Positions 1,902-48,038 of a DNA stretch of 64,000 bases are shown in pieces; the stretch's first letter is position 1; each line of letters begins with the position of its first letter. The position numbers were made by a program, and so were the translations under genes. Source of the stretch: Trypanosoma brucei (lineage: Eukaryota); NCBI GenBank assembly GCA_000002445.1, contig CP000071.1, positions 1,440,001 to 1,504,000 on the forward strand, read 5' to 3'. The notes below the pieces were generated by a model. It searched no databases. It was given only the letters and a program-made list of their open reading frames with translations, and was not told the DNA's origin.

Positions 1902-3230
1902 TCAACTCATAGCCGTGTAATTGAATTTTTCGCACACAGCAGCTAGTGAACGAACATTTTTAACAGAAATGGCAAGTTGCCGCGCAAAATTTATAAGGGC
2001 AACTCTCTCTCCTCTGTTTAGTTCCACCACATTCTCAGCGGAACCGAAGACAATTTTCAACGCGGTGGCAAGAGCAGCTGTTTCCAACTTCCCCCAAGCG
2101 CGGCACTTTTCACACGTGACGCAATCCATGAGAGTTGTAACATTGTGCACCACGCGCTTCATTTGCCGAACCAGTAGGTGCGCACCCGGAGACTCAAAAA
2201 ATTTTTGCTCGTCGAAAGTTGCTACGCGGAATAGCTTGCTGCTAAAAAGTTCCCCAATATTGCTGTAGAGACGCACATCTCCATCTGTAGCAGCGCCGTT
2301 GAAGCCAGAGTTATACAAACTTGAGTTAGCAAGAAATGCACGTTTGGTCTTCGCCAGAGCGCGAAGGACAAACTGGTAGACAACAAAAAGGTTCCTTATG
2401 AATTCGTCATTCTTAACGATGCGGCGGAACATGCCACAGTTAGGATAGAAAGATATATTGGGATTATTTAGCACACCTAGGCTGCGCAGCGGAGAGTCAC
2501 CCTTCGTATCATTATAAAAGAAAGCAGCCACATGCATGGTTATAGAAGTATGGAGCCCACTTAGAAGCTGCCGAAGTAAAGCCTTCTCTCTGTTTTCTAC
2601 ACCAGCCGTATCATTACTTGGAAGTCCGTCAATATTGCAGTTGTTATATACAGCCTGCCAAACCCGCGCTGCTTTCGGTCCCGAATATCCGGTGTTTGCC
2701 TCTGGGTTTTGGAGAAGATCCACATATGTTGCATCTCTATCTGGGTCGATCGGCTTGATCTCGTCCTCGAAACCTTTTGCTGCATGTTTGTCAGGGGCCG
2801 CACGACGTTCAACCGTGGAAACATCACTCATATCGTATGGGTATTTTAGTGTTTCGGGAATTCCACTGTCATCACAAGTGCAGATCTGGCATCCATTTGA
2901 ATCACATGTACAACTAGCCTCAGCGACCCAGTAACGACATTCCCTGTCCAGATTTACTTTAAAGTACCGAAAGTATGGGTGACTCGTTATGTTGTTAAGA
3001 AGGCCTGTAATACCCTCAGTGTTCTGACTGACCTCATCCATGGTAAGGGAACAAAACCCCTCCTTAAGGGCATTTCCTTTCTTGGTCCTTACATATGAGC
3101 CAGCCCCGGAATTGTTGGCTGAAATGTACATCCCAAAAAAAGAAACACCATCCAATTCAGCACGAAGTAAAATTTGCCAAACAAGTCCTAGAAGAACAGG
3201 AACTACTATCAATAATCGCATCTTCAACAT
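1902..3230 (-). CDS. ERO1: Endoplasmic reticulum oxidoreductin ERO1 (FAD-dependent thiol oxidase)
   Basis: ORF-track 442-aa ORF. The start codon is ATG (MLKM, reverse complement CATCTTCAACAT seen in the sequence). It has an N-terminal signal or TM segment. Diagnostic ERO1 motifs are present: FRYFKVNL, the CxxCxxC shuttle-loop region (CTCDSNGCQICTC), and the C-terminal active-site block CVTCEKCRAWGKLETAALATALKI, comparable to [25 protein letters not shown]. Confidence 0.85.
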   Translation of the reverse strand: MLKMRLLIVVPVLLGLVWQILLRAELDGVSFFGMYISANNSGAGSYVRTKKGNALKEGFCSLTMDEVSQNTEGITGLLNNITSHPYFRYFKVNLDRECRYWVAEASCTCDSNGCQICTCDDSGIPETLKYPYDMSDVSTVERRAAPDKHAAKGFEDEIKPIDPDRDATYVDLLQNPEANTGYSGPKAARVWQAVYNNCNIDGLPSNDTAGVENREKALLRQLLSGLHTSITMHVAAFFYNDTKGDSPLRSLGVLNNPNISFYPNCGMFRRIVKNDEFIRNLFVVYQFVLRALAKTKRAFLANSSLYNSGFNGAATDGDVRLYSNIGELFSSKLFRVATFDEQKFFESPGAHLLVRQMKRVVHNVTTLMDCVTCEKCRAWGKLETAALATALKIVFGSAENVVELNRGERVALINFARQLAISVKNVRSLAAVCEKFNYTAMS

Positions 3231-4192
3231 CTCCCGATGTGAATAGTACGATTAACCTACACGAACCACAGATAAAGAATTTAAAAAAAGGGTATCTATT
3301 TTTTAAAAAAAAATCGGATGCAGAGAGGTACCGTCATCAATTGCGGTCCCCAACAACTTTAAAAAACAGTAAAAGGTAACGACCTAGGAAACCCCTCTGA
3401 GTGAAGCTACATAATTGAATGGAAGTGCAACTGATGTCCCCCTCTGACATTCTGAAACGGTAGTCACTTTTAGGCCACGCGGCGACATATCCTAAAAGGA
3501 CGGTGATTGACAACAGAAAACTGATATCAAGCAACGTACAGTTTTAATTCACCAAACTGGGCATCATCACTTCCACCCAACAGTAAAGAAAAAAAATTCA
3601 GTGATGCGATGCCGGAACTTCTGCGGAAGGAAATGTTTAAGTAAGTTGCTCAATTTAAAAAAAAAAGTGGAAATTGTACTGGATTTTTAGAAAATGTCCT
3701 TAAGCATGTCACTCCGTTCGCCCAACATACCCCGGCCTTAGTACCAGGGTTGAAGTTGATTAAGTTTGCGGCGCCGTGACTTCTGTAACGATAGCACAGC
3801 ATATCTTCGACTCTGTCAACTGTGGTGCCACCGCTCCTCCACACGATGCGGCCACCACGCCACTGTTTCGAGTCCGGCTAAAAATAAAAAAACGAACACG
3901 GCTTTCCAAGGTGAGCCACCCCTTCCTTAAAGAGTTACCAGACAGTAGAGTTGGGTGGGCAGACATTGCAGTCGCCATAATGGCCAGCGCCTCAATCCGA
4001 CATAAGTACTAGTTTGTGTTTACCAACAGTCGCAGCCACACTCAGCACCACCCACCCATAATGGCAATTAGATGCGCAACACCGGCCTCAGCAGCACCAC
4101 CACTCAGGCATCCCCCTGAGTCGACGAAAGTTAAGCCCACATCTGCAATCGCGCACAACAAAGTCCCACGGACAGCCCGTGACGAAATATAG

Positions 4193-4206
4193 CCCCCCCC
4201 CCCCCC
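4193..4206 (+). repeat. C14 homopolymer (G14 on minus strand) in strand-switch region; a second C13 run lies at 4415-4427
   Basis: Direct read. Confidence 0.9.
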
Positions 4207-7200
4207 GATCGGCACTGCCACAATGTGAGGTAGTGCGACGCCACCAAAAACATTGAAGCGGCCCACCAGACACCCTCGGCCGGCTCGTCTGCTGGACCCC
4301 TTGTCTCCGTTTCCCCGCATTCATTGTTCACAAATGGGGTCCGTCAACACCACCTCCACCACGTCGCGCTTTCACTTGGTGACCGCATCCGTGCTCTCAC
4401 AGTGCCCATCGCCACCCCCCCCCCCCCTTGTCTACTACACGGAAACGGAGGGCCACCCCTCCCGATCAATCGAAAACAGTGAAGAAACATCAACACCAGT
4501 TTGCGCGACAAGGGGGGAAAGTCAGCACCACACCCCCTTTTGAGAAGCTCAGCCACAGGCTAACCCCTCCTCGCTCAAAGCCCTCAAACCATGGGGGCGC
4601 CCTCGCAGCCCGTCCCACCCACATCTCACAGTCACTGTTCTCGGGCAACATCCGGGCCGCCAGGAGCAAAGACAATGATAAAAAAAAATAAACCAGCAAA
4701 CCCTAAGGGCAGCAGCCCCCTTCGATCGAAAGAGCGGAAATACTTCGAATCAAACCAAAGCAATACGCAAGCATTTGTACCGACGCCCTGCCCCCACGTT
4801 CCATCTACCATCAACCGTCGGTACGTCGAACGGTGACAGACAGCTCGGCCTTTTCGCATTCTCTGTTGATTAGCATCTTCAACGGTACAAGCTTACACCT
4901 CCACTAACTATGGGAAAACGGCAACGCTACAACAAGAAATAGATCATCAGCCCGGGGACCCTAGTCATCCTTTGCTTGGACCGAAGCAAAGTTACACCAG
5001 GCCTTTCGAAGAGGCACCAGCGGCCCTTGAAGGCTCCCCGTCCACACACCCCAAAGACACTTCAGGCATTAGCTGGGAAACCGCCCTCTACATCTCAACA
5101 ACTCCCCCCTAGCATGCATGTAGCGTACGTCTCCTCCAACGTGTTGCGGGTGCCTCAACAGCGCATCTTAGAACTTTCGCCCCATTGGAAGAAGGCGGCC
5201 GTCCCGTAAAAGAGCCAGGTACTAGCGCTGAGAGGCGGCCGGAGACGCCGGGGGGCTAATCCTCACCTCGAAATAAGCCATCGTGACGCCAGCTACTTCA
5301 TTAAGGCGGTGGGATCCCATACTTCTCTTTTTTTATTGAGGGGAGCAGAGAAATGGCCATGTTCTACAAGTGCGCAAAACGGTTGACTGTGCCTGGGCCG
5401 AGCTGTCTTACGGTGCGTGGACTCCGTGGGTCACAATAATTCTCCGTTTTCCCATGGGCACATCCGATCGTGCCATAGGCATCTTGAACCGTACAATTGC
5501 AGTGACGAAATATTTTGGCACCCTGCGGTTCCCCACAACCGCCGCCTCGTTATGATGCAGTTCTAACAAAACCATGAAGAAAAGGTTTTTTTTAAAAAAA
5601 GAAAACATTATTATTATTTTTTTTTAGGGGGGTGGGTCCTGCGACGGGAGTGACTAGGCCCTACTGAATAAATTATTATATGCTATCCTCCTTAATTTTT
5701 TAATACAAACGGATAGCGAAGGTAAGTTTTCCTCAACTTCAACATGTAGATTAGCCTCTCTTTTTTTTTTCTGTGAACGTATTATTTGTTGTCCAAAAGT
5801 GCAGGAACAACTTGTTTGTCGTTTTCCTTCCAGACGGTTTTTCTCCATTTTGGAGTAGGGCAGGCGAGGCACTGACCGTTCCCTGTAAAAACACATCCTC
5901 AGGACCTGGTCTGTCAGGGGCCCTCGGCATGTCGACACCGCCTTTCACATCTGCCAGCCAGCCGGCCCACAATGTCTAAAAACTGCTGGCGCTGAGGATG
6001 GCTCGTGTGAGGCTGGATGGCGCGCACCGGCAACCCCCGTCAGATATATCATTGGGGACGTCCTCAAACACCCAAGAGGCCGACTATCCTAACGTGGTGT
6101 GGCAAGTTGGCGCCCCGCTGGAGGGGAAGAGAAGAGCCGAACCTCCATTCGTGATTTCAGGGCGAAGTTGGAAATCCAGAAATGGAAATGTGAGCGATCA
6201 TGCGCAACACTACTGGGACTCCGGGAAGAAAGTGTGTTTTCTGAGTGATGGCGCCTGAAAATACAAACTTTCACTTGCTTTCGGTGTCAATTGAATCTTA
6301 TTTCTCCTTAACAAGGATGCAGAACAGATTCCTCATCCCATTCTCTATGGAGATTAACGAAATGTGAGGTCTCTCAGTCATAAAAAGGTTGCTTCTCTTG
6401 AAAGCGCCTCATGGGGACACGGCGGCCTTTCGCCTTCCTTAATAGACGCTCATGAAGGTTGAGGAAGGCAGAATGAAGGCTTGCGCCCATTATCAATACA
6501 TAGTGTTGCCTTGCTGTAAAATGAAGAGTAACAGCGTATCAATATTCATTCGAAACAAGATATGAGTAATTGACGCTCCAAAAAATTATTATAGTCTTAG
6601 AAAGCATAACCATTACGGTGACGCCTGAAAATGGTGAACAGCTCGGTGTGGCATTTGCCTGCCTTCCCAATAACTCTAATGTAAGCATGTAAAGGTTGTA
6701 GCAATTAAAAGCGAGGATCAAGATTCAGTAGCCGTCGGAGCTGACGTAAAACAGCACTATTTTGCTTGAGACATCCGCATCGCAGAGGAGAACGGTGATG
6801 AAGCTGACGTTGAATTGATAGCTGTAGAAGAGTTTAACAGTTACCAACAATGAAACCCCAATTTGATATACAGCATTCGGAGGCGCACTGCTTTCAATAG
6901 AAGTTACCTGTTTTACGCACAGCAATGTAACATTTTGGAAAGCGATGCGAAACTTTTGCGGTTATTGTAGTTGGATATTGCTCAATGTAGCATTATAAAG
7001 GGATATGAAGAAAATTGTGGATTGTCCAAATTTTCCAAAACATTGTGTGCCAGAACTCGGTAAATAGGTAAAAACACGTGTCGATGGCAGTTGAAAACAT
7101 CAATGATGCCATTACATCTGTAGTGGATTAGACAGCACCAAAAAACAATTCATAGGAAGAAAATGTTGTTCCTCCTTCATTAGAGAAAGGAGGGTGTTGA

Positions 7201-7610
7201 ATATAACAGCTGTGAGGACATGCAGGAAGATGCACTTCAAAACTGCTAATGGATGAGACAAAGAAAAACTTCGTACCTTATTGAAAGAATTATTCACAGC
7301 ACCATTATTATAGATTCCTACCCTAATAATGGAAGAGGAACCCACCGAAAGAAAAGGGGAGCGAAGTCGCAGATCTTAATGAATATGTAAGCGAATCAGT
7401 CTACAAGAAGTCCAACAACTGAATTGAAGAGCACCTGTTGGCCAAAGAGCCTCTTTTTAAAACTGTTTATCGCTGCTAAACTGATAAATGCGGTAAAATA
7501 ATCATTGTCATGGAAAACGGTAGTGGGGAAGAAATTAACTACGAGAGATCAAAGGTGATGTTTACTTCAACTCTGCAGCTTCTTCCGAAGATGAGGCACC
7601 CTTTCTGATC

Positions 7611-7612
<2 letters not shown>

Positions 7613-7652
<40 letters not shown>
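7613..7652. repeat. (TG)n dinucleotide microsatellite, about 20 units, inside the strand-switch region
   Basis: Direct read: tgtgtg... uninterrupted. The ORF 7614-8264, which starts MCVCVCV, is an artefact of this repeat. Confidence 0.95.
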
Positions 7653-7653
<1 letters not shown>

Positions 7654-10600
7654 AACATCATTCCACCACTCTCGAACAAAAGAATCAGCTAAAGACGTTG
7701 AACAATCTGGGCTGCTGGAACCAACGGGTGCTGTGTGTGAATTCATCGAGAGAGCACAGCTTAAGGGGCCTAAAAACTGGGTTCGAGAGCGACACAGCTA
7801 CGACGGTCAGGTTTCCGACAGGGGGACGCAGCACTAGCTCTGTTTTAGAGGTACAGAGCGCAATCGAGGCAGTGGAGAAACGCACCCGAAGCGTAGCAGC
7901 GTTTATAGACTATGTTAGGGCATTTGGCCAGGTGCAGCGCAACTGTGGCGTTCGAACGCTAGGGTGTTTCGGAGTGCTTATCACACTCGATATGGTAGAT
8001 AGGCAACTTCTCGCCACACGGAACAAAAATGTCCAGAATGCACAGTGTGCAGGCCGACGGTGCCAGGCGACGCACGGCACGCTGCGGGATTCGTTGTTTT
8101 GCAAGACCCTATTCTCCGGGGCAACAGAATGGGTGAGCGCGAAACCGAATAAGATCCCTGGACTCAGGGATAGTTTGTTTACCGGTATTATGGCCCTCAA
8201 ACCGTTGGGCTCGGAAAAGGCAGAACGGAGAGATACGCAGCAAAGGTGGAAGCTGGGGGTTTGATGACGATTGTTTCAAAGACGCTTTATAGAGTACCGG
8301 TAGAGAAAAAAAGGGTATCACCCGCATGGCGTGCGCACTGGGGACTCACTGCACCTTCGGGGTCCAGGATAAAAGATTAACGATACGAAGGCCTAAAACC
8401 CTTGAACCTCGGTTTTCAGTAAAAACAAAAACACAATTATCGCTTCTTTATCAGTTGCAGTAGCTCTTCCCATGTTATTTTCCAATTATTTTTATTATTA
8501 TTTTTATTATTATTATTTTTAATTTTTGCCGATTTGACCCCTCTAAGGGTGCAAAAGGTTACTCCAACCCTCTGGATATACCTACGAGGACAAATCTCTT
8601 CGGCGCTGAAAAGGCCGCCGGCATTTCACTGAGCTCTTTAGGCACTAAGGGTTGGGTTTGGCTCAAAATCTCTGCATAAAATTAAGGGAGGATAGAAAAC
8701 CCTCGTTGGGGCAGGTTGGAACGATGCTTTGCTGGGTCTGAGTCTCTTTTTTTCGCCCCAGCACAATACTGTTCCATTCTTTTGACCCACAGCAGGGACC
8801 ACAACGCCGGTAGCATCCCAGTTTCACGAGAAAAGCACGTGGAGCCAGCTTGCTATCCATCTGGAAAGTGTGTACTTTTTTGAAACACGGCGAACGAACT
8901 GGTGCTGCCTTGGAAAAGGCGCTTCACATGCAGCCGCTTAGGTAAATTTCTATTCCGTTTCTGGGGGAAGCGGTTTATGTGCAATCACAGGCTTCGTAAA
9001 ATAACCTCTTACAGAGTAAATAGGTGAAAGTACATCCTGCTATCTAAAAAACTATTTTTCTTTTTTTTTTTTGATAGCTGATTGTGTATAATTACAAAGA
9101 AACGTAAACGTATTCACATACCTGCGGGTGTGGACCCACCCTTCTCTAGTGGAAAGGATGAAGTGGGTGTGAGGTTTTACGCCTTAAAACAGGTAGAAAA
9201 CAGAAAGTGTTGGCCCACTTCCGATTTCCGATGTTATGTCCTTTTAATTGATAACATCGTCCTCTCACCACCGCAGTCCAAGTGCTTTGAGGAGAACCGT
9301 GAAACCTCCACGTCTTAGCAGAGCTGTTATTCCAATGCGGCCGTGCGGCTCGTTTCACCCCTCACACTTGGAGGCTCGGGGTGTCCAGACCCAGGGGCAG
9401 GTGACTTCTCACGCTAAGGTGCTAGTCGGCTCCCGGTCCCCCTTCGCACCAGGCTGTGTTCGTGTGGTAGGTCTCCAGTCGGTCCAGCTTTCCCTAGAAT
9501 GCTGTTTTGAGTGCATTTCGCAGCCACGTAAAACCACTGCCTTGTTCCGTTCCATTGCTATCCAGTCCGGGGAATTTGTGAAGCCGGTAGCGCTATCGGG
9601 GTGATGCTTCTGGCGGTGACGGTCTACCGCATGCCGGCCCTGTGATTCTCATAAAGCTCACCGCGCATAATAGGTTCCACTGGAAGATTGTTTTGGGGTG
9701 GGGATTGTCACTGCCTCCACGCCTACTTTCCCACTTATCATCCCTGTGGCACTGCCTTCAGTCCATCATCGCCCCCCTGACGGGCTGTTTTTTTTTTTTC
9801 CTTTCCCGATGGAGTGAACGGGGAACCACCTTCGATCTAGAGAATAGCTTTGCTAGAGAACGGTTTTCGCCTTATGGTGCTGAAAGCTGTGGTGGGAGGT
9901 GTGTGTGTGCATGTGTAACTACGTTGCTGACCCTCGCGAGCGGCGCCGCACATACTCTGCTCTGCCCCAATTCGCCGGTCCGGCCTCCGAGGAGTGCCCT
10001 TTGGTGAGGACTGGAGTGACTAGACGTGACCACGGCTGGGGTTGAGTCCCTTCCACGAGGAAATGATGGTTCGTGGCGCTTGGTATCGTTAATTTTTACC
10101 AGGTTGTACGCGTTGAGTGGATCTGCGTAAGCTTTGAGCCGTGGAGCGGTCCGTTGCCCCTCCCATTGGTAAAGCGGCTGTCGTTGACCACGTGATGCCC
10201 CTTTTGGCACTAGGTATATCGTGTGCCGGCGGGTGGTGTTTATGATTTCACTTGCGGTAGTTTGCGGGTCTCACATTGATGGTGTCTTGGGGGCGCGTGA
10301 GAAATCGCGTTGCGGCGTACTGCTGCCTGATCTGGCAACCTTTTTGTGTTTGACGCTGAGGGCAAGCGTGCCTATATTTTTCTAAACATGGGAGAGGTTT
10401 GTTTGCTTCCTTTTTTCCCAACTGTTGCGGCGCATGTTTTATTCGGGCTATGCTTGTGCAATGAATTCTTGTCCGCTTTCCGTCTGGGTTTACCCATCGT
10501 GCTTTAGGTATTTAAAGCGATGACGTTTAAATTCTTTTACAATGTGCCGAGGCAGGTGCACTCTTTTAGAGGCGGGTCGCGCGGACCTCGCCGGGCAGAG

Positions 10601-12351
10601 GTGTTCAATCGCCTAACGCGTCAGCAGTTTCGACGGAGGTTGATGAGCGGAACCGCTGCTTCTAATGCCAAGAGCTGGGATGCACTGGACCGAAAGAGAA
10701 TGCAGCGAGACTCCGTTGTTGAGCATCGTCGGCTTAACGTTGCCCGCATGCCAGCGGCGGTGATAAGGCAGAAACTAAAAAGGGGGCCACCCCACAAAGG
10801 CGATGATAAGTATTTACTTCGACCTTAGCCATCGGGCTGCCATTTGTTGACGCGATCAACTCGTTATTCGGCTGACTGGATACATGCGGACGCTGTATGT
10901 TTTGGCTAACTACATTATTCCTTTTCTCTTTCCACGCACTTTGCTTACTATCTGTTCGGGGGGTTTCCTCGTTGGCATCTTACACGGAGGTTGATCTGGA
11001 AAGTAAATTTGTTGGACGTCTCCGGGAGATATGTACAATGCGGCTTTAGTGGAATGTAAGCGTATTTAGTTTTTATCGTGATGGACAAATGCATTTGTTT
11101 GTCTTGAATTATTGGGTGTGGTTGTGAACCATATGATGATTGTTGTTTTTCTCTAATCATTACTCTTGTGATGCAGGGATGTTGTGCATTGTCGGCTAAC
11201 TGCCATTGTTTCCTTTACAAGGGTTATTTCAAATCGTTGGTGTTTATTGCAAAGGTCGTTACGGCCGGGGTGGAGGTTAATGGAGCTTCTCTTTCAGCTT
11301 AATAACCAAAAAAAGAGGAGTATGCGTCACCTTTTTTGCTGCGTCATCAACACATCTTGTAGGAAATGTAGGGAATGACGTTATTATGTAGTTTGACGGA
11401 ATATTGTGAGGTTAACGCCATTTGACCAGGACAACCATTTTTGCTTTCTTGTTCACTTGCCTATTCTTTTCAAAGGGTTGCATGAAGGATGTATATTTAG
11501 ATCTGTTTTTATTTATGTTACGAGACTCCACCCCATTATAGAGTTTACGGGTCTTTCAAAGTAGCAAGATACCGATATAAAGACATTGGCATTGTGACGC
11601 ACAAGAGCGTCGTTGGTCTTAGTTTCGAGCGGGGTCCTTATGTTTTATGATTTGTTGACCGTGTGAGCAACTACTTGTTTCTCACAGTTGTAACGACTTA
11701 ATTGTTATTACTATTTTGTCGGGTGCTTTGTTCGATTGCCCACACATATTTTGAATCTGGTGATCACCAAGAAATGGCAAAACGAATCAAAAATTCCGTA
11801 TTTGGTTGTGTAAACTAATTTGCTGTCGAAGAAAGTATACACCGTAGATGAAACCTTCTCTATCTCTCCCTTAAATACACCGTACCGTACATTTTTTTTT
11901 TCAGATTTAGCTTGTGGACATATTTGGCTGAACATATGTGTGGAGTATGATGCAGCGTTGGAGATCCGATTTCTTCACTGATTTTGTTTGTGAAGGTTTC
12001 CGTCCATTTATTCTTACATGCAACATCGCGGAAGAGTGATTAAGTTTTTTCATTGTATCTTTAACTTTCATTTCTATTTTGGTTAAAAAATGAATAGATG
12101 AGTTGCGGTGGCGATGTGACAGAGGGACGATTGTGTTTTTTTATTTCTTATGTTGCTTTTTTAATTTTTTTGCCGCGATGTCAGTGTACACATATTAAAA
12201 TTCATATTAGTTTTGTTTGAGCACGACTTTATATTTTACTGAGTGGACTACTTGGATGGTTGGTTGTTTCTTCACTGTTGTGGCCAACGACTTTTTATAT
12301 CTTGCACTCACTCTGCACTGGGTTGTGGATTTACATTTTTAGACACAGTTA

Positions 12352-15300
12352 ATGTCTTCGGAGGCGGTAAAAAGACATATATTGGCTGCGATTCATACCC
12401 TGAATATTCCCTTGGACCTAGCACCAAGTTCGACCAAGGTGGATGAGGTTTGTTCTGCAGCGAAACTGCTTCGTAATCGCGTTCTTCGAGAAATCGCACG
12501 TGTTGAAAAGTCAATAGAAATGTTAAAGCAGAGGCAGTACGGTGACGCTGATGAGAGCGAGATGGACGAAGAGGCTATATCTGAAAATGTGGGGAGCTCA
12601 ATAGACACACATAATCTTACCAGGTACGATTTTATGTTTATAAGCGAAATGATGGTTATGGAAAATCTTGTTGTTCCGTTATTACTGGCTCACGGGATGA
12701 ACTTTGCGACTTCGCTTTTGCCACAACTGCTAAAGCTTCTCGCAGTAATGCTTCTACCTATTATACCGTGTTCTCATGAGGTACCACGTCAGCTAGATTA
12801 TGTTCGTCGTCTAATCGAGCGGTGTGGAACAGATGACTTTTTCTGGCTCTTGATTCAGTGTATTGTTCCGGTCACGGAGAAGCGCTCCAAAGGTGAAGCC
12901 CGAAAAGAAGACTCTATTCTTCTTGAAATTGTGCTAAAGATGATTGCTCTGTTTTTTACGGGTCCAAGAGAAAGTGTTGCGCAAGTTATCGGTGCCTTTG
13001 GCCGAAACCATGGGATCGAGCTGTTTCTTGTGGTACTGAATCAGAATTATGCTCGGTATGAACATAGAAATAACAAAGATAGCAATGATGTAGCGGTCGA
13101 TCCCATATCTCCCTCAGCCGGTACGAGTAATACAGAACGCTCTGGCGTGATTGTTCTTGATGGTGACACAGATGAGGAAGATGCGGTGGATTTGTCTGGG
13201 GAAAGCAACTCTGGGGAGGAATCAAGCGATACGGGATCCACTAATTCTGAGAGGTTTGGTCGAGTTTCAAACCACCTTAACGTTGATGATCAATACAGCG
13301 CGCGGATTGTCGAAATACTTGAAAGTGATGACCAGTTATGGAAGTGGAACACCCACATCATTACCGCGATGTCTGCAATACTTCGCTGTGCGCAATCGGC
13401 TGAACTTGCAAAACTAATATTTACCTCGAAATTCCGTCAGGGGTCATCCCAGCAGTTAGCTTCTCTGGCAGAAAATTCCAAGCGGTTTCGGGAATTTACG
13501 TCTGAGTCGAAGAAATGGAGACATGTTGCAAGAAGCAGGAATGGTGCCGTGAGTTCCAATGGTTTGCTTGTGCGTGGTACATCTTCACATCTGCAGGGAG
13601 AGGGAGGTGTGATTGGATACACGTCAACACTTCTAGGTTATCGAACAAAAGATCCTATTGAAAAGGTCCGTGAAATTGACTCAAAAAAAAGAGGCCGTTA
13701 TGTAAAAGGAACGTCTGACGATGCTTCCATCATATGTAACCTTTCTCTACCGACGAAAATTCAGTTGGCAGAACAATGTCTCTCGTTTATATGCTATGGA
13801 TTTGAACCCTTAAGCATTATGGTTTGGGATCGTCTGGCTAAATCGATTGCCTCCTTTAGAGACGCTGTGTGTGAACGGAAAGAGTTCATAGCGGGACGCA
13901 AATCGTCTGGGGAGGATGTTGAACTTCCGTCAGAGTTCGAGAAAAGTGTATACGAGTCGATGCAACAAGTTCTAAATTACCTGGAAATGTGTACCTCATT
14001 ACTACGTTACACCAGGGAAGCTGTTCGTTTGAAAAAAGAGGGAATCGATGATGAGCCTTCTCAGTTTTTTAATCAGCAGTGGAAGTGCATTTCAAGTGTA
14101 ATAACTCTTGAGCACATATTTAGCGGCTTTGAGCTGCTGCGTGTACTTTTAATGTCTCCAGATTTGAGGCGGCGGTTCGGCGTATGGACTGTGGCGAACT
14201 ATCTTGCCGAACTTTTTATGACTCTGAACCACCTGGTGGACGGCGACATAGTGGAGGACCCTCATGTGATTGGCGCCGCGCATGCTTTAGTCTCTTCAGT
14301 ACTTTACAAGGAGGAATATGTCCAGTTGGTGTTCGATACCATATCGAAGACGTCAACCAAGCCCATTTCTCCATACCGTGCCAGTGTGCTAGTATTACTG
14401 CTTTACTCCGTGTTGCGACTTATGGAGAAATGTAGTTTCGGCGGCCGTTTGTTATTTCCACGAAGGAAGAAGAAAGCGAGCAAATTCGTTGTTCATGAGA
14501 CGGAGGACAATGTAGGCATATGTTTTAATGAAGCAGATATGCCAATTGTTGAGTGTGACCCTCATGTTTCGTCCGAAGCAGTTAAAGATCGGCCAATCGC
14601 TAATGGAGAGATAACCGACCCATCAACTATTTCGTCATTGCAAATATCTTCAAATGTTATTTCGATGAATGAAGTGCCTGAGGGCAGCGGCAGAGTTGAG
14701 GAGTTATGCGCCGGAGACCGATCCGTTGCAGGTGAAAGTTGGGTTAACTCGACTCACAATGGCGAAAGGGAAGTGAACATGCGTCAATACTTCAAGCGCC
14801 TTTCCACCGGACAAAATGTTTCTGTATTGCTTTCGTCACTTTGTCACTGGAGAGCGAACGATTCGGATGTAAACGAGGGGTTGGAATTTTTGATTCGCTC
14901 CTTTATGGCCGAAGGTTGTGTTACCACATTGTTTAGTGCATCCTTCCTTATTACCATGAGGGATATTTTGACCAATGGTAGCGAAACACACCGTGGGTTG
15001 TATGAGGCATGTGACGAAGTTATTTATTTGTTTTTTAATCCCCCTTCTGCCAAGTTTTTTGACGAACGGAAGGAAATCGAGTTCGCGTCTTCTTCTGGTA
15101 TTTTACAGGGATCTGAATCATTTCTGGGATTTGAAGTGTCGTTGCGATGTGCCCGATCATTATTCTGCTTTAGTTCGACAGAGTACATGATTTTAGAGGA
15201 AAAGGGGTTTCCTGACTTCAGAGATTCCACTGTTATTCCCTTAGCGAGTGAGGGCACAGTGGTCAACGGCTCAGGGAAAGAAAGTGTCGAACTCGGTGTT

Positions 15301-15438
15301 TTCAGCACAAAGAAACCTCGGGACAAACGAGAGTCGTTGTCAAGACAAAAGGGAGGAAAACGAAGGAAATTCGACGATGAAAACGTGGATGTTTCCATAG
15401 ATGAACAGGCCGATATTGCTGTCGGTCTAGAAGTTTAA
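12352..15438 (+). CDS. Conserved hypothetical protein, 1028 aa; first long gene of the plus-strand cluster
   Basis: ATG verified at 12352 (aatgtcttcggaggcg = MSSEA). Long uninterrupted ORF with an acidic low-complexity stretch (DTDEEDAVDLSGESNSGEESSD). I recognise no domain. Confidence 0.7.
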   Translation: MSSEAVKRHILAAIHTLNIPLDLAPSSTKVDEVCSAAKLLRNRVLREIARVEKSIEMLKQRQYGDADESEMDEEAISENVGSSIDTHNLTRYDFMFISEMMVMENLVVPLLLAHGMNFATSLLPQLLKLLAVMLLPIIPCSHEVPRQLDYVRRLIERCGTDDFFWLLIQCIVPVTEKRSKGEARKEDSILLEIVLKMIALFFTGPRESVAQVIGAFGRNHGIELFLVVLNQNYARYEHRNNKDSNDVAVDPISPSAGTSNTERSGVIVLDGDTDEEDAVDLSGESNSGEESSDTGSTNSERFGRVSNHLNVDDQYSARIVEILESDDQLWKWNTHIITAMSAILRCAQSAELAKLIFTSKFRQGSSQQLASLAENSKRFREFTSESKKWRHVARSRNGAVSSNGLLVRGTSSHLQGEGGVIGYTSTLLGYRTKDPIEKVREIDSKKRGRYVKGTSDDASIICNLSLPTKIQLAEQCLSFICYGFEPLSIMVWDRLAKSIASFRDAVCERKEFIAGRKSSGEDVELPSEFEKSVYESMQQVLNYLEMCTSLLRYTREAVRLKKEGIDDEPSQFFNQQWKCISSVITLEHIFSGFELLRVLLMSPDLRRRFGVWTVANYLAELFMTLNHLVDGDIVEDPHVIGAAHALVSSVLYKEEYVQLVFDTISKTSTKPISPYRASVLVLLLYSVLRLMEKCSFGGRLLFPRRKKKASKFVVHETEDNVGICFNEADMPIVECDPHVSSEAVKDRPIANGEITDPSTISSLQISSNVISMNEVPEGSGRVEELCAGDRSVAGESWVNSTHNGEREVNMRQYFKRLSTGQNVSVLLSSLCHWRANDSDVNEGLEFLIRSFMAEGCVTTLFSASFLITMRDILTNGSETHRGLYEACDEVIYLFFNPPSAKFFDERKEIEFASSSGILQGSESFLGFEVSLRCARSLFCFSSTEYMILEEKGFPDFRDSTVIPLASEGTVVNGSGKESVELGVFSTKKPRDKRESLSRQKGGKRRKFDDENVDVSIDEQADIAVGLEV

Positions 15439-22595: not shown

Positions 22596-22606
<11 letters not shown>

Positions 22607-22640
<34 letters not shown>
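22607..22640. repeat. (CA)n dinucleotide microsatellite in intergenic region
   Basis: Direct read: cacacaca... about 17 units. Confidence 0.9.
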
Positions 22641-34817: not shown

Positions 34818-36620
34818 ATGAGCGGAAAGGAAGTTGAAGGTGTTGTGAGTCCTGCGGACCAGCAGCAGCCAGCCGTCCCGGAGGTAACAGATATCACGCT
34901 GGAGGCCGCCCGCAAGCAGAAAATTCACAACCTGAAGTTGAAGACCGCCTGCCTTTCGAATGAGGAATATGTCCAGGACCTGCACGTATCCGAGTGGAGT
35001 GAGACGCAGAAGCAGAAGCTGCAGGCTGCACACGAGAAAGCGCATGAATTGCTTGCCTCAGTGGAGGGTGGGACGAAGTGGAGCCTGACAGAGGCGTATG
35101 ACATCAAGAAGCTGATGCGCGTCTGTGGTCTTGAGATGTCTGTGCGTGAACTGTACAAGCCGGAGGACAAGCCACAGTTCATGGAGATTGTTGCACTCAA
35201 GAAGACAATGAACGAACTGAAGCAACATCACAACAAGACTCGCACGGTGTCTTTCACCGGCATGATCGACAATGCCATCGCCAAACTGGAGAAAATCGAA
35301 GACGAACTGCGCCGGTCCCAGCTCGACGCTTCTGAGATGGCGCAAGTTCCTGTGGCTGCACTGAAGAATATTGAGGACACGATGAACGTGGCTGTTGTGC
35401 AGACGGCTCTTCTTGGGAACGAGGAGCAGATCAAAGCCCAACTTGCAGCCGTTGAGAAGGCGAACGAAATCCGTAATGTTGCCATTGCCGATGGTGAGAT
35501 GGCGATTGCTGAGGAACAGTATTACATTAAGGCGCAGCTGTTGGAGCACCTTGTGGAGCTTGTGGCCGACAAGTTTCGCATCATTGGGCAAACTGAGGAT
35601 GAGAATAAGAGCTTCAGTAAGATCCACGAGGTACAGAAGAAGTCATTTCAGGAATCTGCCTCAATCAAGGACGCGAAGCGCCGCCTTAAGCAACACTGCG
35701 AGGACGACCTACGTAACCTTCACGATGCCATCCAGAAAGCTGACTTGGAGGACGCCGAAGCCATGAAACGGTTCGCCACGCAGAAGGAGAAGTCGGAGCG
35801 GTTCATCCACGAGAACCTCGACAAACAGGACGAGGCATGGCGTCGCATTCAGGAACTGGAGCGCGTGTTGCAGCGCCTTGGGACGGAGCGTTTTGAAGAG
35901 GTGAAGCGCCGTATTGAGGAGAACGACCGCGAGGAGAAGCGTAAGGTGGAGTACCAACAGTTCCTCGATGTATGTGGCCAGCATAAAAAGCTGCTGGAAC
36001 TGTCTGTGTACAACTGCGACCTTGCGCTTCGCTGCATGGGTATGCTGGAGGAGATCGTAGCCGAGGGCTGCAGTGCCGTCAAGTCACGCCATGACAAGAC
36101 GAACGATGAGTTGTCTGACCTTCGGCTGCAGGTGCACCAGGAGTACCTGGAGGCATTCCGTCGCCTGTACAAAACTCTTGGCCAGCTTGTGTACAAGAAA
36201 GAAAAGCGCCTGGAGGAGATTGATCGCAACATCCGCACCACACACATTCAACTGGAGTTTGCCATTGAGACCTTTGACCCCAACGCGAAACTACACTCCG
36301 ACAAGAAGAAAGACCTATACAAACTTCGTGCGCAGGTGGAGGAAGAGTTGGAGATGCTGAAGGACAAGATGGCGCAGGCGTTGGAGATGTTTGGACCTAC
36401 TGAGGATGCGCTGAACCAGGCTGGTATCGATTTTGTTCACCCTGCTGAGGAGGTTGAGTCCGGCAACATGGATCGCCGCAGCAAGATGGTGGAGTACCGT
36501 GCACACCTGGCGAAGCAGGAGGAGGTGAAGATTGCCGCGGAGCGCGAGGAGCTGAAACGATCTAAGATGCTCCAGAGCCAGCAGTACCGCGGCCGCACGA
36601 TGCCGCAGATCACTCAGTAG
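34818..36620 (+). CDS. PFR2: Paraflagellar rod protein 2 (PFR2/PFR-A), copy 1
   Basis: The 600-aa product MSGKEVEGVVSPADQQQPAVPEV...QYRGRTMPQITQ is recognisable as the T. brucei 69-kDa major paraflagellar rod protein. ATG verified. Confidence 0.95.
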   Translation: MSGKEVEGVVSPADQQQPAVPEVTDITLEAARKQKIHNLKLKTACLSNEEYVQDLHVSEWSETQKQKLQAAHEKAHELLASVEGGTKWSLTEAYDIKKLMRVCGLEMSVRELYKPEDKPQFMEIVALKKTMNELKQHHNKTRTVSFTGMIDNAIAKLEKIEDELRRSQLDASEMAQVPVAALKNIEDTMNVAVVQTALLGNEEQIKAQLAAVEKANEIRNVAIADGEMAIAEEQYYIKAQLLEHLVELVADKFRIIGQTEDENKSFSKIHEVQKKSFQESASIKDAKRRLKQHCEDDLRNLHDAIQKADLEDAEAMKRFATQKEKSERFIHENLDKQDEAWRRIQELERVLQRLGTERFEEVKRRIEENDREEKRKVEYQQFLDVCGQHKKLLELSVYNCDLALRCMGMLEEIVAEGCSAVKSRHDKTNDELSDLRLQVHQEYLEAFRRLYKTLGQLVYKKEKRLEEIDRNIRTTHIQLEFAIETFDPNAKLHSDKKKDLYKLRAQVEEELEMLKDKMAQALEMFGPTEDALNQAGIDFVHPAEEVESGNMDRRSKMVEYRAHLAKQEEVKIAAEREELKRSKMLQSQQYRGRTMPQITQ

Positions 36621-36860
36621 CGCTGCGCTTAAATGTCTTTCATTATAATCAATGTATAACCTTTATGTAGTATTTCAATCTATGCCGCTGTGTACGTGCA
36701 CTGCGGTGCCTATCCTTCGGCATTAGAGAGTCACTGTTTGTGTAGATCGTAGCTGCATGTCTGACATCTGGTTCATTAGTGCCGTTTTGAGTCTGCACTG
36801 TTGTGCAACTTGATATGCATCACTGCACACCAACCGTGTGTTTCCTCCTTTGGGTGCACC

Positions 36861-36907
36861 CTTTAATCCTTGTCTTCTCCTTTTTTGTCTCTTTCCCCCT
36901 CGAAAAG
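36861..36907 (+). promoter_or_regulatory. Polypyrimidine tract plus AG dinucleotide: candidate trans-splicing acceptor region for the downstream PFR2 copy, repeated in every spacer at +2154n
   Basis: The tract ctttaatccttgtcttctccttttttgtctctttccccctc is followed by aaaag, about 65 nt upstream of the ATG. From established kinetoplastid mRNA processing, a polyY tract directs spliced-leader addition at a downstream AG and polyadenylation of the upstream mRNA. The exact acceptor AG is not determinable from sequence. Confidence 0.5.
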
Positions 36908-36971
36908 GTGTCAAACTACTGCCGCATAAACTACGGTTATCCCAAATTTAAGAGAAAGCAATAAAGCATCA

Positions 36972-38774
36972 ATGAGCGGAAAGGAAGTTGAAGGTGTTGT
37001 GAGTCCTGCGGACCAGCAGCAGCCAGCCGTCCCGGAGGTAACAGATATCACGCTGGAGGCCGCCCGCAAGCAGAAAATTCACAACCTGAAGTTGAAGACC
37101 GCCTGCCTTTCGAATGAGGAATATGTCCAGGACCTGCACGTATCCGAGTGGAGTGAGACGCAGAAGCAGAAGCTGCAGGCTGCACACGAGAAAGCGCATG
37201 AATTGCTTGCCTCAGTGGAGGGTGGGACGAAGTGGAGCCTGACAGAGGCGTATGACATCAAGAAGCTGATGCGCGTCTGTGGTCTTGAGATGTCTGTGCG
37301 TGAACTGTACAAGCCGGAGGACAAGCCACAGTTCATGGAGATTGTTGCACTCAAGAAGACAATGAACGAACTGAAGCAACATCACAACAAGACTCGCACG
37401 GTGTCTTTCACCGGCATGATCGACAATGCCATCGCCAAACTGGAGAAAATCGAAGACGAACTGCGCCGGTCCCAGCTCGACGCTTCTGAGATGGCGCAAG
37501 TTCCTGTGGCTGCACTGAAGAATATTGAGGACACGATGAACGTGGCTGTTGTGCAGACGGCTCTTCTTGGGAACGAGGAGCAGATCAAAGCCCAACTTGC
37601 AGCCGTTGAGAAGGCGAACGAAATCCGTAATGTTGCCATTGCCGATGGTGAGATGGCGATTGCTGAGGAACAGTATTACATTAAGGCGCAGCTGTTGGAG
37701 CACCTTGTGGAGCTTGTGGCCGACAAGTTTCGCATCATTGGGCAAACTGAGGATGAGAATAAGAGCTTCAGTAAGATCCACGAGGTACAGAAGAAGTCAT
37801 TTCAGGAATCTGCCTCAATCAAGGACGCGAAGCGCCGCCTTAAGCAACACTGCGAGGACGACCTACGTAACCTTCACGATGCCATCCAGAAAGCTGACTT
37901 GGAGGACGCCGAAGCCATGAAACGGTTCGCCACGCAGAAGGAGAAGTCGGAGCGGTTCATCCACGAGAACCTCGACAAACAGGACGAGGCATGGCGTCGC
38001 ATTCAGGAACTGGAGCGCGTGTTGCAGCGCCTTGGGACGGAGCGTTTTGAAGAGGTGAAGCGCCGTATTGAGGAGAACGACCGCGAGGAGAAGCGTAAGG
38101 TGGAGTACCAACAGTTCCTCGATGTATGTGGCCAGCATAAAAAGCTGCTGGAACTGTCTGTGTACAACTGCGACCTTGCGCTTCGCTGCATGGGTATGCT
38201 GGAGGAGATCGTAGCCGAGGGCTGCAGTGCCGTCAAGTCACGCCATGACAAGACGAACGATGAGTTGTCTGACCTTCGGCTGCAGGTGCACCAGGAGTAC
38301 CTGGAGGCATTCCGTCGCCTGTACAAAACTCTTGGCCAGCTTGTGTACAAGAAAGAAAAGCGCCTGGAGGAGATTGATCGCAACATCCGCACCACACACA
38401 TTCAACTGGAGTTTGCCATTGAGACCTTTGACCCCAACGCGAAACTACACTCCGACAAGAAGAAAGACCTATACAAACTTCGTGCGCAGGTGGAGGAAGA
38501 GTTGGAGATGCTGAAGGACAAGATGGCGCAGGCGTTGGAGATGTTTGGACCTACTGAGGATGCGCTGAACCAGGCTGGTATCGATTTTGTTCACCCTGCT
38601 GAGGAGGTTGAGTCCGGCAACATGGATCGCCGCAGCAAGATGGTGGAGTACCGTGCACACCTGGCGAAGCAGGAGGAGGTGAAGATTGCCGCGGAGCGCG
38701 AGGAGCTGAAACGATCTAAGATGCTCCAGAGCCAGCAGTACCGCGGCCGCACGATGCCGCAGATCACTCAGTAG
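36972..38774 (+). CDS. PFR2: Paraflagellar rod protein 2, copy 2
   Basis: Translation identical to copy 1. Confidence 0.95.
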   Translation: MSGKEVEGVVSPADQQQPAVPEVTDITLEAARKQKIHNLKLKTACLSNEEYVQDLHVSEWSETQKQKLQAAHEKAHELLASVEGGTKWSLTEAYDIKKLMRVCGLEMSVRELYKPEDKPQFMEIVALKKTMNELKQHHNKTRTVSFTGMIDNAIAKLEKIEDELRRSQLDASEMAQVPVAALKNIEDTMNVAVVQTALLGNEEQIKAQLAAVEKANEIRNVAIADGEMAIAEEQYYIKAQLLEHLVELVADKFRIIGQTEDENKSFSKIHEVQKKSFQESASIKDAKRRLKQHCEDDLRNLHDAIQKADLEDAEAMKRFATQKEKSERFIHENLDKQDEAWRRIQELERVLQRLGTERFEEVKRRIEENDREEKRKVEYQQFLDVCGQHKKLLELSVYNCDLALRCMGMLEEIVAEGCSAVKSRHDKTNDELSDLRLQVHQEYLEAFRRLYKTLGQLVYKKEKRLEEIDRNIRTTHIQLEFAIETFDPNAKLHSDKKKDLYKLRAQVEEELEMLKDKMAQALEMFGPTEDALNQAGIDFVHPAEEVESGNMDRRSKMVEYRAHLAKQEEVKIAAEREELKRSKMLQSQQYRGRTMPQITQ

Positions 38775-39125
38775 CGCTGCGCTTAAGTGTCTTTCATTAT
38801 AATCAATGTATAACCTTTATGTAGTATTTCAATCTATGCCGCTGTGTACGTGCACTGCGGTGCCTATCCTTCGGCATTAGAGAGTCACTGTTTGTGTAGA
38901 TCGTAGCTGCATGTCTGACATCTGGTTCATTAGTGCCGTTTTGAGTCTGCACTGTTGTGCAACTTGATATGCATCACTGCACACCAACCGTGTGTTTCCT
39001 CCTTTGGGTGCACCCTTTAATCCTTGTCTTCTCCTTTTTTGTCTCTTTCCCCCTCGAAAAGGTGTCAAACTACTGCCGCATAAACTACGGTTATCCCAAA
39101 TTTAAGAGAAAGCAATAAAGCATCA

Positions 39126-40928: not shown

Positions 40929-41279
40929 CGCTGCGCTTAAGTGTCTTTCATTATAATCAATGTATAACCTTTATGTAGTATTTCAATCTATGCCGCTGTG
41001 TACGTGCACTGCGGTGCCTATCCTTCGGCATTAGAGAGTCACTGTTTGTGTAGATCGTAGCTGCATGTCTGACATCTGGTTCATTAGTGCCGTTTTGAGT
41101 CTGCACTGTTGTGCAACTTGATATGCATCACTGCACACCAACCGTGTGTTTCCTCCTTTGGGTGCACCCTTTAATCCTTGTCTTCTCCTTTTTTGTCTCT
41201 TTCCCCCTCGAAAAGGTGTCAAACTACTGCCGCATAAACTACGGTTATCCCAAATTTAAGAGAAAGCAATAAAGCATCA

Positions 41280-43082: not shown

Positions 43083-43433
43083 CGCTGCGCTTAAATGTCT
43101 TTCATTATAATCAATGTATAACCTTTATGTAGTATTTCAATCTATGCCGCTGTGTACGTGCACTGCGGTGCCTATCCTTCGGCATTAGAGAGTCACTGTT
43201 TGTGTAGATCGTAGCTGCATGTCTGACATCTGGTTCATTAGTGCCGTTTTGAGTCTGCACTGTTGTGCAACTTGATATGCATCACTGCACACCAACCGTG
43301 TGTTTCCTCCTTTGGGTGCACCCTTTAATCCTTGTCTTCTCCTTTTTTGTCTCTTTCCCCCTCGAAAAGGTGTCAAACTACTGCCGCATAAACTACGGTT
43401 ATCCCAAATTTAAGAGAAAGCAATAAAGCATCA

Positions 43434-47578: not shown

Positions 47579-48023
47579 TGGGTGGTACAGTTGGAAGCTG
47601 ACAAGGAGGCGATTATGCATAAATATACATGTACTTCTTTTTTGAATTTGCCTTCTCTCCACCCCTTTCCCCTGACATTCCGTCGGCTGTCACATTTCAT
47701 GAAGTGAAAACAGTGTGCTGCCTTAGAGAGAAATTTGTGTAAGAGTATTGTTGGGGACGCGGTATGTATTCTAGCTGATCAACCCCACATGTCTTTGCAT
47801 TTGCCTTTTTACCTTTTTCCTTTCTCAGTACAAAAAAAAATGTATGTCGCTATTCATGTGTTTCACTGTGACGGGAAAGTTGCCTCTTACAGACAAAATT
47901 CCCGTCATCTTGGAATAGTACAACCATTCTGTGTATACCCCTTCTCTATTTTTTCCCCCCTGCACGCTAGCGTGAGTGCGTACAGTTTGGGAGCTAAGCT
48001 TTGACTCCTCTGCAACTGGGTTA

Positions 48024-48038
48024 GGGGGGGGGGGGGGG
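48024..48038 (+). repeat. G15 homopolymer in intergenic region. Similar G runs at 60681-60690 (G10) and 62132-62149 (G9 then TGGGG)
   Basis: Direct read; all lie between plus-strand genes on the sense strand. Confidence 0.9.

Follow-up and report, generated by a model that had tools for sequence, protein, structure and literature searches.

The locus and its flanking genes

The DNA analysed here, called the window, is a 64-kb stretch of chromosome 8 from the Trypanosoma brucei group, 99.1% identical to T. equiperdum and 97.4% identical to T. b. gambiense chromosome 8. On its left, the minus strand carries the ERO1 gene (1902-3230; Pfam ERO1, E=6.6e-84), the first gene of a leftward cluster. 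Its protein is identical to that of T. equiperdum, and its gene ID is Tb927.8.4890 (PMC8630539). With the ERO1 ORF bounded at 3230, the next long ORF on the plus strand begins at 12352 and extends to 15438, encoding a 1028-amino acid Timeless-N-terminal-domain-like protein, the name borne by its kinetoplastid orthologues. This arrangement supports the earlier note's reading of the interval as a divergent Pol II strand-switch region.

The same note described the interval as unusually long (9.1 kb) and gene-free, and neither description holds. Divergent switch regions in T. brucei are put at 5-10 kb (PMC11796357, PMC12227686), and 74 of them have been sorted into a narrow class (≤4 kb) and a broad one (>4 kb), in which the twin peaks of RPB9 scale with region width (PMC9508842). 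The interval also contains a conserved gene at 10520-10828 and a reverse-transcriptase pseudogene at 7824-8360. Because the rightward cluster really starts with the former, the gap proper measures 7.3 kb and not 9.1 kb. The 9-kb space between ERO1 and the Timeless-like gene is most likely an ordinary broad transcription start region, neither exceptional nor devoid of genes.

The gene at 10520-10828 (plus strand), which opens the rightward cluster, encodes a basic protein of 102 amino acids. The annotations of T. equiperdum and T. b. gambiense include it as a gene; in the latter and in T. congolense it is labeled “hypothetical protein, unlikely.” Gap-free alignments are obtained with the equivalently placed ORFs of T. 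vivax, T. theileri, and T. cruzi, which are 101-102 amino acids long. HMMER retrieves a T. congolense homologue (E=4.7e-18) and the T. vivax protein (E=1.1e-6). Differences at the three codon positions number 291, 276, and 408, and are thus concentrated at the third. Of the four substitutions that separate the T. b. brucei ORF from that of T. b. gambiense, three are nonsynonymous, so recent constraint is not evident.

Upstream of ERO1, positions 3231-3750 are AT-rich (GC 0.40-0.42) and contain plus-strand runs of A7, A9, A8, and A10 between 3283 and 3666. Read on the ERO1 coding strand these are T-runs, i.e., polypyrimidine tracts, and this minus-strand segment presumably holds the ERO1 5′ UTR and splice-acceptor zone. 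On the right, the spacer leading from the small gene to the Timeless-like gene (10829-12351, plus strand) is T-rich, with a GC content of 0.35-0.43, more T than A, and T10, T7, and T7 runs at 11892-12171.

Base composition and strand polarity

Three sub-domains had been proposed for the region, a division that is only approximately correct. The first, a CA-rich and GC-rich island, is borne out: at 3751-5000 GC content is 0.53-0.58 and the plus-strand G+T fraction 0.36-0.40, including the lowest value of all 500-bp windows (mean across the 64 kb, 0.524 ± 0.052). The second had been drawn as AT-rich from 5.3 to 8.3 kb, which is true of about 6.25-7.5 kb (GC 0.38-0.42) but not of 5751-6250 (0.53) or 7501-8250 (0.50-0.54). 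Likewise, the third is GC-rich over about 9.25-11.0 kb (0.51-0.56) and not over the full 8.3-10.9 kb, since GC content is 0.43-0.47 between 8.25 and 9.25 kb. The individual landmarks are present as listed (C14 at 4193-4206, C13 at 4415-4427, A9 at 4680-4688, and (TG)20 at 7613-7652), and a T7 run also exists, one base away from the 5327-5333 first given, at 5328-5334.

On the minus strand, which here carries the coding sequence, the GC-rich block at 3751-5350 is rich in G and T. Its plus-strand G+T fraction is 0.36-0.41 at 3751-5250, where the window's minimum lies, and rises to as much as 0.47 at 5001-5500. The homopolymers become G14 (4193-4206) and G13 (4415-4427), and two G-quadruplex motifs (4405-4427 and 4600-4620), of six found across the 64 kb, sit on this coding strand. 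GT-rich 10-mers on the minus strand span 2.75-5.3 kb and peak at 4.0-4.75 kb, around the two G-runs; at 4001-4750 there are 60-67 of them on the minus strand vs. 0-4 on the plus strand. Composition, 10-mers, G-runs, and quadruplex motifs together make this block a candidate dispersed promoter for leftward transcription.

Polarity reverses at 5250-5800, where GC skew, AT skew, 10-mer bias, and the type of homopolymer all change sign. Cumulative GC skew reaches its minimum at about 5.5-5.9 kb, and the 10-mer bias flips from minus to plus at 5251-5750. Left of 5.3 kb there are six A-runs and no T-run, and to the right three A-runs and ten T-runs (Fisher p ~0.003); within the region, all ten T-runs of at least seven bases lie at or beyond 5328. 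A-runs that give way rightward to T-runs, with G-quadruplex motifs nearby, could also describe a DNA replication origin, acting instead of a promoter or besides one. We consider it quite unlikely that this is the main role of the switch point: mapped origins are reported not to be enriched at transcription start, termination, or head-to-tail regions, and polypyrimidine tracts on each coding strand explain the A/T polarity equally well.

To the right of the switch, the first block with a plus-strand bias (5350-6250; GC 0.44-0.53) has 21-34 GT-rich 10-mers on the plus strand vs. 11-18 on the minus strand, and probably represents the place where the rightward promoter zone originally began. The bias is much stronger at 8751-10519, with 24-42 such 10-mers on the plus strand vs. 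0-7 on the minus strand, and it culminates at 9501-10500 (32-42 vs. 0). This block, which is GC-rich from 9251 onward (0.52-0.56) and has T12 runs at 9061-9072 and 9788-9799, is a candidate dispersed promoter for rightward transcription together with the upstream region of the first gene. The suggestion that the right-hand GC-rich block might be an initiation element therefore fits its 9.25-10.5 kb part, and GT-rich sequence in general makes the best candidate signal when it lies on the coding strand. What the note did not recognize is that the CA-rich island merely mirrors the right-hand block: on the strand that encodes the ERO1 cluster it is GT-rich and contains G14 and G13.

Other origins had been considered for this island. 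According to one, it would be a degenerate short retroposon of RIME or SIDER-like type, finishing in an A-rich tail. Switch regions do gather retroposons (PMC4748587, PMC4035085), two other retroposon fragments lie within the same gap, and there is the A9 run at 4680-4688. The island does not end there, however: A9 is internal, and the composition is unchanged for another 650 bp, to about 5.3 kb. Similarity searches against retroposons are negative for the island, as no Pr77 hallmark is found in the window (best local score 24, vs. 94 for the T. congolense L1Tco positive control), alignment of both strands of 3700-5400 to the 4.4-kb L1Tco element scores inside the shuffle range, and neither a match to the T. 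equiperdum ingi fragment nor a six-frame protein-domain match is seen. A GC-rich block biased toward the same strand also occupies the equivalent position in three other species. A retroposon origin of the island is accordingly highly improbable.

The other proposal was that part of the island (~4.7-5.33 kb) is a Pol III-transcribed small RNA terminated by a T-run. Small-RNA genes transcribed by Pol III in trypanosomes depend on the A and B boxes of an adjacent tRNA gene, and a search of the 64 kb detects no tRNA gene. No Rfam family matches at gathering thresholds, nor does one within the region when the cutoff is relaxed to E≤1, the number of B-box-like matches is about what chance predicts (10 vs. 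12.5 expected), and both strands fold worse than shuffled sequences (z = +2.3 and +1.5). The sole point in favor is the T7 run at 5328-5334, and T-runs of that length are common here. This proposal is almost certainly wrong.

The middle section and its retroposon remnants

Between the two rightward blocks, positions 6251-7612 are AT-rich (GC 0.38-0.42) with neutral 10-mer counts on the two strands. Homology searches return no match for this stretch, and 6501-7500 is a local hot spot with 40 substitutions vs. T. b. gambiense. It is possibly retroposon sequence that has decayed completely.

The (TG)20 tract comes next (7613-7652, plus strand). It had been put forward as an initiation element, and together with the GC-rich block to its right it might form a discrete, sequence-specific Pol II promoter. 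On the strand that encodes the rightward cluster the tract has no base other than G and T, it gives rise to a local maximum in GT-rich 10-mers (7251-8000), and initiation from GT-rich synthetic elements is possible (PMC5579346). Its copy number, however, differs among genomes that otherwise share 97-99% identity (20 in the window, 16 in T. equiperdum, and 5 in T. b. gambiense); this is the behavior of a length-polymorphic microsatellite. A (CA)21 repeat also occurs at 22599-22640 inside the plus-strand cluster, away from any switch, and the TG tract itself lies in the strand-neutral middle, 170 bp upstream of the reverse-transcriptase pseudogene. A scan for homopolymers in the orthologous regions of T. 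vivax, T. theileri, and T. cruzi shows no equivalent tract. The tract is thus a weak candidate, and a discrete promoter built on it is very unlikely.

That pseudogene (7824-8360, plus strand) is a degenerate reverse-transcriptase fragment of the ingi/L1Tc clade, lying in the frame of ORF 7614-8264. It aligns with residues 570-748 of T. congolense L1Tco ORF1 (tblastn, E=7e-10), is matched by ten T. vivax retroposon reverse-transcriptase proteins, and is detected by a custom HMM (i-E=1.1e-12). RT motif A is retained (FIDYVRAFG), but FTGI replaces FADD and there are three in-frame stops. A second fragment in the opposite orientation (8542-8694, minus strand) combines a 2A-like peptide (DFEPNP vs. 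DVERNPGP) with the start of an endonuclease domain (NAGGL). Its tblastn match is at E=0.005, and its nucleotide alignment to L1Tco scores 54, vs. 22.4 ± 2.7 (maximum 33) for shuffles. A degenerate retroposon thus does exist in the region as suspected, outside the CA-rich island.

[quoted passage not shown] The points in common are 27-31% amino-acid identity to the reverse transcriptases of active L1Tco and T. vivax elements, in-frame stops, a lost catalytic motif, a 2A-like/endonuclease N-terminal fragment, and the switch-region location. What differs is that only two short pieces (~540 and ~150 bp) in opposite orientations are present, and that neither has a detectable Pr77 hallmark, poly(A) tail, or target-site duplication. 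No nucleotide-level relation of the fragments to current ingi was found. About 0.7 kb of the middle section's roughly 2.5 kb is demonstrably retroposon-derived.

Orthologous gaps in other trypanosomes

The same genes flank the orthologous regions of T. cruzi, T. theileri, and T. vivax, and there too the small first gene precedes Timeless by about 1.4-1.9 kb (~1.4 kb in T. cruzi, counted from the conserved ATG at 8629). Each has one flip in GT bias, which falls either within a single GC-rich core or on its border. The gaps of the different species share no nucleotide similarity. Distances from ERO1 to the small gene are 7.3 kb in T. brucei, 6.3 kb in T. vivax, 0.8 kb in T. theileri, and ~0.45 kb in T. 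cruzi. The T. brucei region is longer than its T. cruzi and T. theileri orthologues by a factor of about 8-15. Retroposon pieces also occur in the T. vivax gap, including a near-intact copy on one contig. Because that gap is of similar length without having the same fragments, the expansions in T. vivax and T. brucei may be independent.

A model of the divergent start region

According to Wedel et al. (2017, PMC5579346), the 5′ end of start regions is enriched, on the coding strand, for 10-mers that are long runs of G or T, and synthetic elements rich in these two bases cause transcription in one direction and the deposition of H2A.Z. G-quadruplexes are also reported to be enriched at start sites (PMC13316426). 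The 10-mer pattern of the gap, common to all four species compared, matches this published signature of GT-rich dispersed promoters. Base composition, the polarity switch, homology to retroposons, conservation of the small gene, and the comparison among species are observed directly; promoter activity, chromatin marks, and exact start sites are what we infer here from base composition and by analogy to genome-wide results.

We propose, with a probability of roughly 75%, that this is an ordinary broad divergent Pol II start region with mirrored GT zones, a retroposon-bearing middle, and an overlooked small gene. Two opposed zones, each G- and T-rich on its own coding strand, extend leftward over 3.75-5.3 kb and rightward over 5.3-6.25 and 8.75-10.5 kb, meeting at a single polarity switch near 5.3 kb. 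Most likely they are dispersed promoters that give direction and draw in H2A.Z-type chromatin and polymerase II, on one side for the ERO1 cluster and on the other for the rightward one. The strand-neutral and mostly AT-rich middle (6.25-8.75 kb) divides the rightward zone in two; its content would be junk, accumulated where insertions break no transcription unit. Such insertions would explain part of the growth of the gap from less than 1 kb in T. cruzi and T. theileri to 6-7 kb in T. vivax and T. brucei. The GT bias could in part be a consequence and not a cause of transcription, because GT skew accompanies transcription generally, and the G+T fraction averages 0.53 over the entire plus-strand cluster.

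The proposed region is like the broad start regions already described in T. brucei (PMC5579346; Maree et al., 2022, PMC9508842) in having two divergent gene clusters, a scale of 5-10 kb, and G/T-rich 10-mers with long G and T runs on each coding strand. In sequence, nothing sets it demonstrably apart from them; its rightward GT-rich zone is split by a retroposon-bearing insert. The “furrow” between the RPB9 twin peaks of published broad regions would match the strand-neutral middle section of the gap.

Composition and class of the start region

Two gene clusters diverge from the 9.1 kb switch region at 3231-12351. Leftward run ERO1 (1902-3230, minus strand; Pfam E=6.6e-84), with the gene identifier Tb927.8.4890 (PMC8630539), a DNA polymerase gene and a WD-repeat gene. 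Rightward run a small ORF, a plus-strand ORF (12352-15438) for a kinetoplastid protein that several sources name as a Timeless N-terminal domain protein, and at least 20 more ORFs. Both flanking proteins are present letter for letter in T. equiperdum OVI, and across the 9.1 kb interval identity is 99.1% to T. equiperdum and 97.4% to chromosome 8 of T. b. gambiense, which places the window on chromosome 8 of the T. brucei group.

On each strand, a 10-mer was counted as GT-rich when nine or more of its bases were G or T. The minus strand is ahead from 2.75 to 5.3 kb, with a peak of 60-67 against 0-4 on the plus strand at 4001-4750. The bias changes sign at 5251-5750, and there is a modest plus-strand lead from 5.25 to 6.25 kb (21-34 versus 11-18). 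From 6.0 to 8.75 kb the counts are neutral, the TG tract excepted, and from 8.75 to 12.75 kb the plus strand is ahead again, reaching 32-42 versus 0 at 9501-10500. GC skew, AT skew and homopolymer type all change sign at the same place as the 10-mers: six A-runs and no T-runs lie to the left of 5.3 kb, and three A-runs and ten T-runs to the right. It is possible that this A/T polarity switch marks a replication origin, but start regions are reported without enrichment of mapped origins (PMC13179062).

The same polarity fits a divergent Pol II start region. Toward each 5' end, G/T-rich 10-mers that include long G or T stretches are found on the coding strand, with G14 and G13 on the minus strand in the left block and T12 runs on the plus strand. 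Cordon-Obras and colleagues reportedly described sequence-specific Pol II core promoters in 2022. [quoted passage not shown]

The earlier note had divided the region into three compositional sub-domains. The homopolymers that it listed are all located in the window, with C14 at 4193-4206, C13 at 4415-4427, A9 at 4680-4688 and T7 at 5328-5334, as is the (TG)20 tract at 7613-7652. Its CA-rich and GC-rich island (3750-5350), the candidate leftward promoter block, is also confirmed: at 3751-5000, GC is 0.53-0.58 and plus-strand G+T is 0.36-0.40, including the lowest G+T values of the 64 kb (window-wide 0.524 +/- 0.052). Two of the window's six G-quadruplex motifs lie here. Read on the strand that codes for the ERO1 cluster, the island is GT-rich and carries G14 and G13, making it the mirror image of the GC-rich block on the right. 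The other two sub-domains are merely approximate in the GC profile. The supposedly AT-rich section at 5.3-8.3 kb is mixed, with GC of 0.53 at 5751-6250, 0.38-0.42 at 6251-7500 and 0.50-0.54 at 7501-8250, while the block said to be GC-rich from 8.3 to 10.9 kb is so only from about 9.25 kb.

The region had also been called unusually long. It spans 9.1 kb from one long ORF to the other, or 7.3 kb if it is taken to end at the small gene; this is within the 5-10 kb given for T. brucei divergent switch regions (PMC11796357) and the 5-10 kbp given for promoter regions (PMC12227686). In one study the 74 divergent switch regions are divided at 4 kb, with those up to that width classed as narrow and wider ones as broad (PMC9508842); this one is an example of the broad class, not an outlier.

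The most economical account is that of a standard broad divergent start region, for which we infer promoter activity. A region of this class would be expected to be enriched in H2A.Z, H2B.V and H4K10ac and to show twin peaks of RPB9 and of 5'-triphosphate transcripts. In the proposed arrangement, two promoter zones, each GT-rich on its coding strand, would join near 5.3 kb, with the rightward one split by a neutral insert of ~2.5 kb that contains retroposon debris and a microsatellite, and a small conserved gene would open the right-hand cluster. Features of this kind are familiar in T. brucei, whose genome has been studied closely; about 70 divergent start regions have already been mapped across it, and this one is typical of them. 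The by-products of the analysis are at the level of annotation.

A small gene at the start of the right-hand cluster

The region is not gene-free, as had been claimed, since a conserved 102-aa ORF is present at 10520-10828 on the plus strand. It has a gene call in T. equiperdum and T. b. gambiense, and the small basic protein is labeled "hypothetical protein, unlikely" in T. b. gambiense and T. congolense. When translated pieces of the region were compared with the orthologous regions, it gave the sole strong match (E=1.9e-12; all others E>=1e-3), to T. vivax sequence that likewise lies upstream of Timeless at the corresponding place. There, T. vivax, T. theileri and T. cruzi each have an ORF of 101-102 aa; the ORFs align without gaps and share 13 invariant residues, and the gene is always the first after the switch. 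Over six species pairs there are 291, 276 and 408 differences at codon positions 1, 2 and 3, a pattern expected of coding sequence. A HMMER search against 1.8 billion representative proteins matched only T. b. gambiense, T. congolense (45% identity) and T. vivax, and sequence searches found neither a Pfam relative nor a PDB match. The 102-aa gene, despite its "unlikely" flag, should count as real. The right cluster then begins 1.8 kb farther upstream, and the true gap is 7.3 kb, at 3231-10519.

In T. theileri, the small gene and Timeless have a further ORF of 220 aa between them (contig L007, 8940-9602). T. cruzi has a partial, frame-broken homologue of it (contig L008, 9246-9634; E=4e-12), and it is absent from T. 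brucei and T. vivax.

Conservation of the polarity switch

The gap between ERO1 and the small gene is about 0.45 kb in T. cruzi, 0.8 kb in T. theileri, 6.3 kb in T. vivax and 7.3 kb in T. brucei, so that the 7.3/9.1 kb region is long only relative to its orthologues. In T. vivax, T. theileri and T. cruzi the orthologous region likewise flips once, within a GC-rich core or at its edge, and blastn finds no nucleotide similarity between these regions and that of T. brucei. We take this sharing of the flip without alignable DNA as the main support for a signature that would be functional, or at least linked to transcription. Across the four species, the polarity switch of composition survives a roughly 10-fold expansion of the spacer, which argues that strand-specific GT bias, rather than alignable sequence, would be the conserved feature of these promoters.

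The divergence profile between T. b. brucei, T. b. gambiense and T. equiperdum is too flat to reveal constraint. A cluster of substitutions occurs at 6501-7500 (40 versus T. b. gambiense and 32 versus T. equiperdum, where neighboring 500-bp bins have 0-14), and it looks like a divergent haplotype block inside the AT-rich middle section.

Retroposon remnants in the middle section

The earlier note had suggested a degenerate retroposon, and it was right about the kind of element but not about its place: remnants lie at 7824-8360 and 8542-8694, and not in the CA-rich island. Six-frame Pfam scans of 3700-10519 with stops masked returned nothing at E<=1. This is a failure of sensitivity, because the reverse-transcriptase remnant emerged with lineage-specific queries, namely L1Tco from T. 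congolense and many retroposon proteins from T. vivax, which were reached from a retroposon beside the T. vivax orthologous region. Residues 570-748 of L1Tco ORF1 match 7824-8360 on the plus strand (E=7e-10), as do ten T. vivax retroposon reverse-transcriptase proteins, making 11 independent queries in total, and an HMM built from the T. vivax proteins gives an i-E of 1.1e-12 at the same place. Reverse-transcriptase motif A is kept (FIDYVRAFG versus FIDYARAFD), FADD is replaced by FTGI, and there are three in-frame stops. The 216-aa ORF at 7614-8264 is in the frame of this fragment, and it is a reverse-transcriptase pseudogene rather than a gene. At 8542-8694 on the minus strand, a 2A-like peptide and the start of the endonuclease are matched (E=0.005). 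The nucleotide alignment score of this second fragment is 54 versus 22.4 +/- 2.7 for shuffles (z about 11), and it has two in-frame stops.

Both fragments have the similarity to ingi/L1Tc-clade polyproteins and the destroyed coding capacity of DIREs. The Pr77 hallmark, which belongs at the 5' end of such elements, was searched for with a query sequence from the supplement of PMC8190864 and was found with neither fragment: the best score in the window is 24 versus 94 for the L1Tco positive control, and a targeted search upstream of the minus-strand fragment gives 19 versus 21 +/- 2.5 for shuffles. As for a 3' poly(A) tail or a target-site duplication, there are just short A-rich stretches near the fragments (8306-8312 and about 8421-8436), with no flanking direct repeats found. 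Attempts to extend either fragment by nucleotide alignment to L1Tco gave nothing above shuffle scores, and an ingi fragment from T. equiperdum had no more than chance blastn matches in the window.

The orthologous gap in T. vivax has its own retroposon pieces, with a near-intact copy on one contig. The T. vivax contigs L004 (2-2359) and L005 (484-1806) differ to the left of position about 2390, one carrying ERO1 and the other a near-intact ingi-like retroposon, and are 99.7% identical rightward from there; the difference in this orthologous switch region reflects a polymorphic insertion or else a variant of the assembly. A short retroposon fragment is common to the two contigs at about 4450-4580.

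The salivarian expansion owes part of its length to retroposons that inserted and decayed; 6.25-7.6 kb and the extra length of T. vivax fall outside this part. It would be a long shot that the retroposon insert was co-opted as a promoter spacer in salivarians and that the 102-aa protein has a conserved promoter-proximal role. Spacer co-option, if true, would account for the gap of 6-7 kb that both T. brucei and T. vivax retain, against less than 1 kb in stercorarian species.

Other candidate elements

The CA-rich island (3750-5350) was considered as a RIME/SIDER element and judged unlikely to be one: it lacks the Pr77 hallmark, and it matches neither L1Tco on either strand nor a 2.5 kb ingi fragment, in a comparison with these two sequences that covered L1Tco for 4.4 kb from its 5' end (the 3' terminus is cut by the contig). 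The alternative proposal for this island, a Pol III small RNA gene ending at a T-run, finds no support either. The tRNA scan found no tRNA gene in the 64 kb. Rfam gave no matches in the window at gathering thresholds and none at E<=1 within the region, B-box-like matches in the region are at chance level, and both strands of 4690-5335 fold worse than shuffles.

The TG tract, put forward as a candidate initiation element, behaves as a microsatellite, with 20 copies here, 16 in T. equiperdum and five in T. b. gambiense. Repeat and tandem-repeat searches of the region returned only this tract and an ATT-rich low-complexity patch. A (CA)21 microsatellite, of the reverse-complement type, lies at 22599-22640 in an intergenic spacer of the plus-strand cluster. 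The TG tract may add local GT-richness; as a specific element, though, it is a weak candidate.

Farther along the window, five tandem paraflagellar-rod protein genes of 600 aa each are found at 34818-45236, with a period of 2154 bp. The top GT-rich stretch of the window (45251-46250, plus-strand G+T up to 0.72) comes directly after the last copy. Inside the rightward cluster, at 48018-48186 and 62128-62148 on the plus strand, there are runs of G15 and G12 together with three G-quadruplex motifs on that strand; they could be start sites internal to the cluster, as G-runs like these are a mark of start regions.
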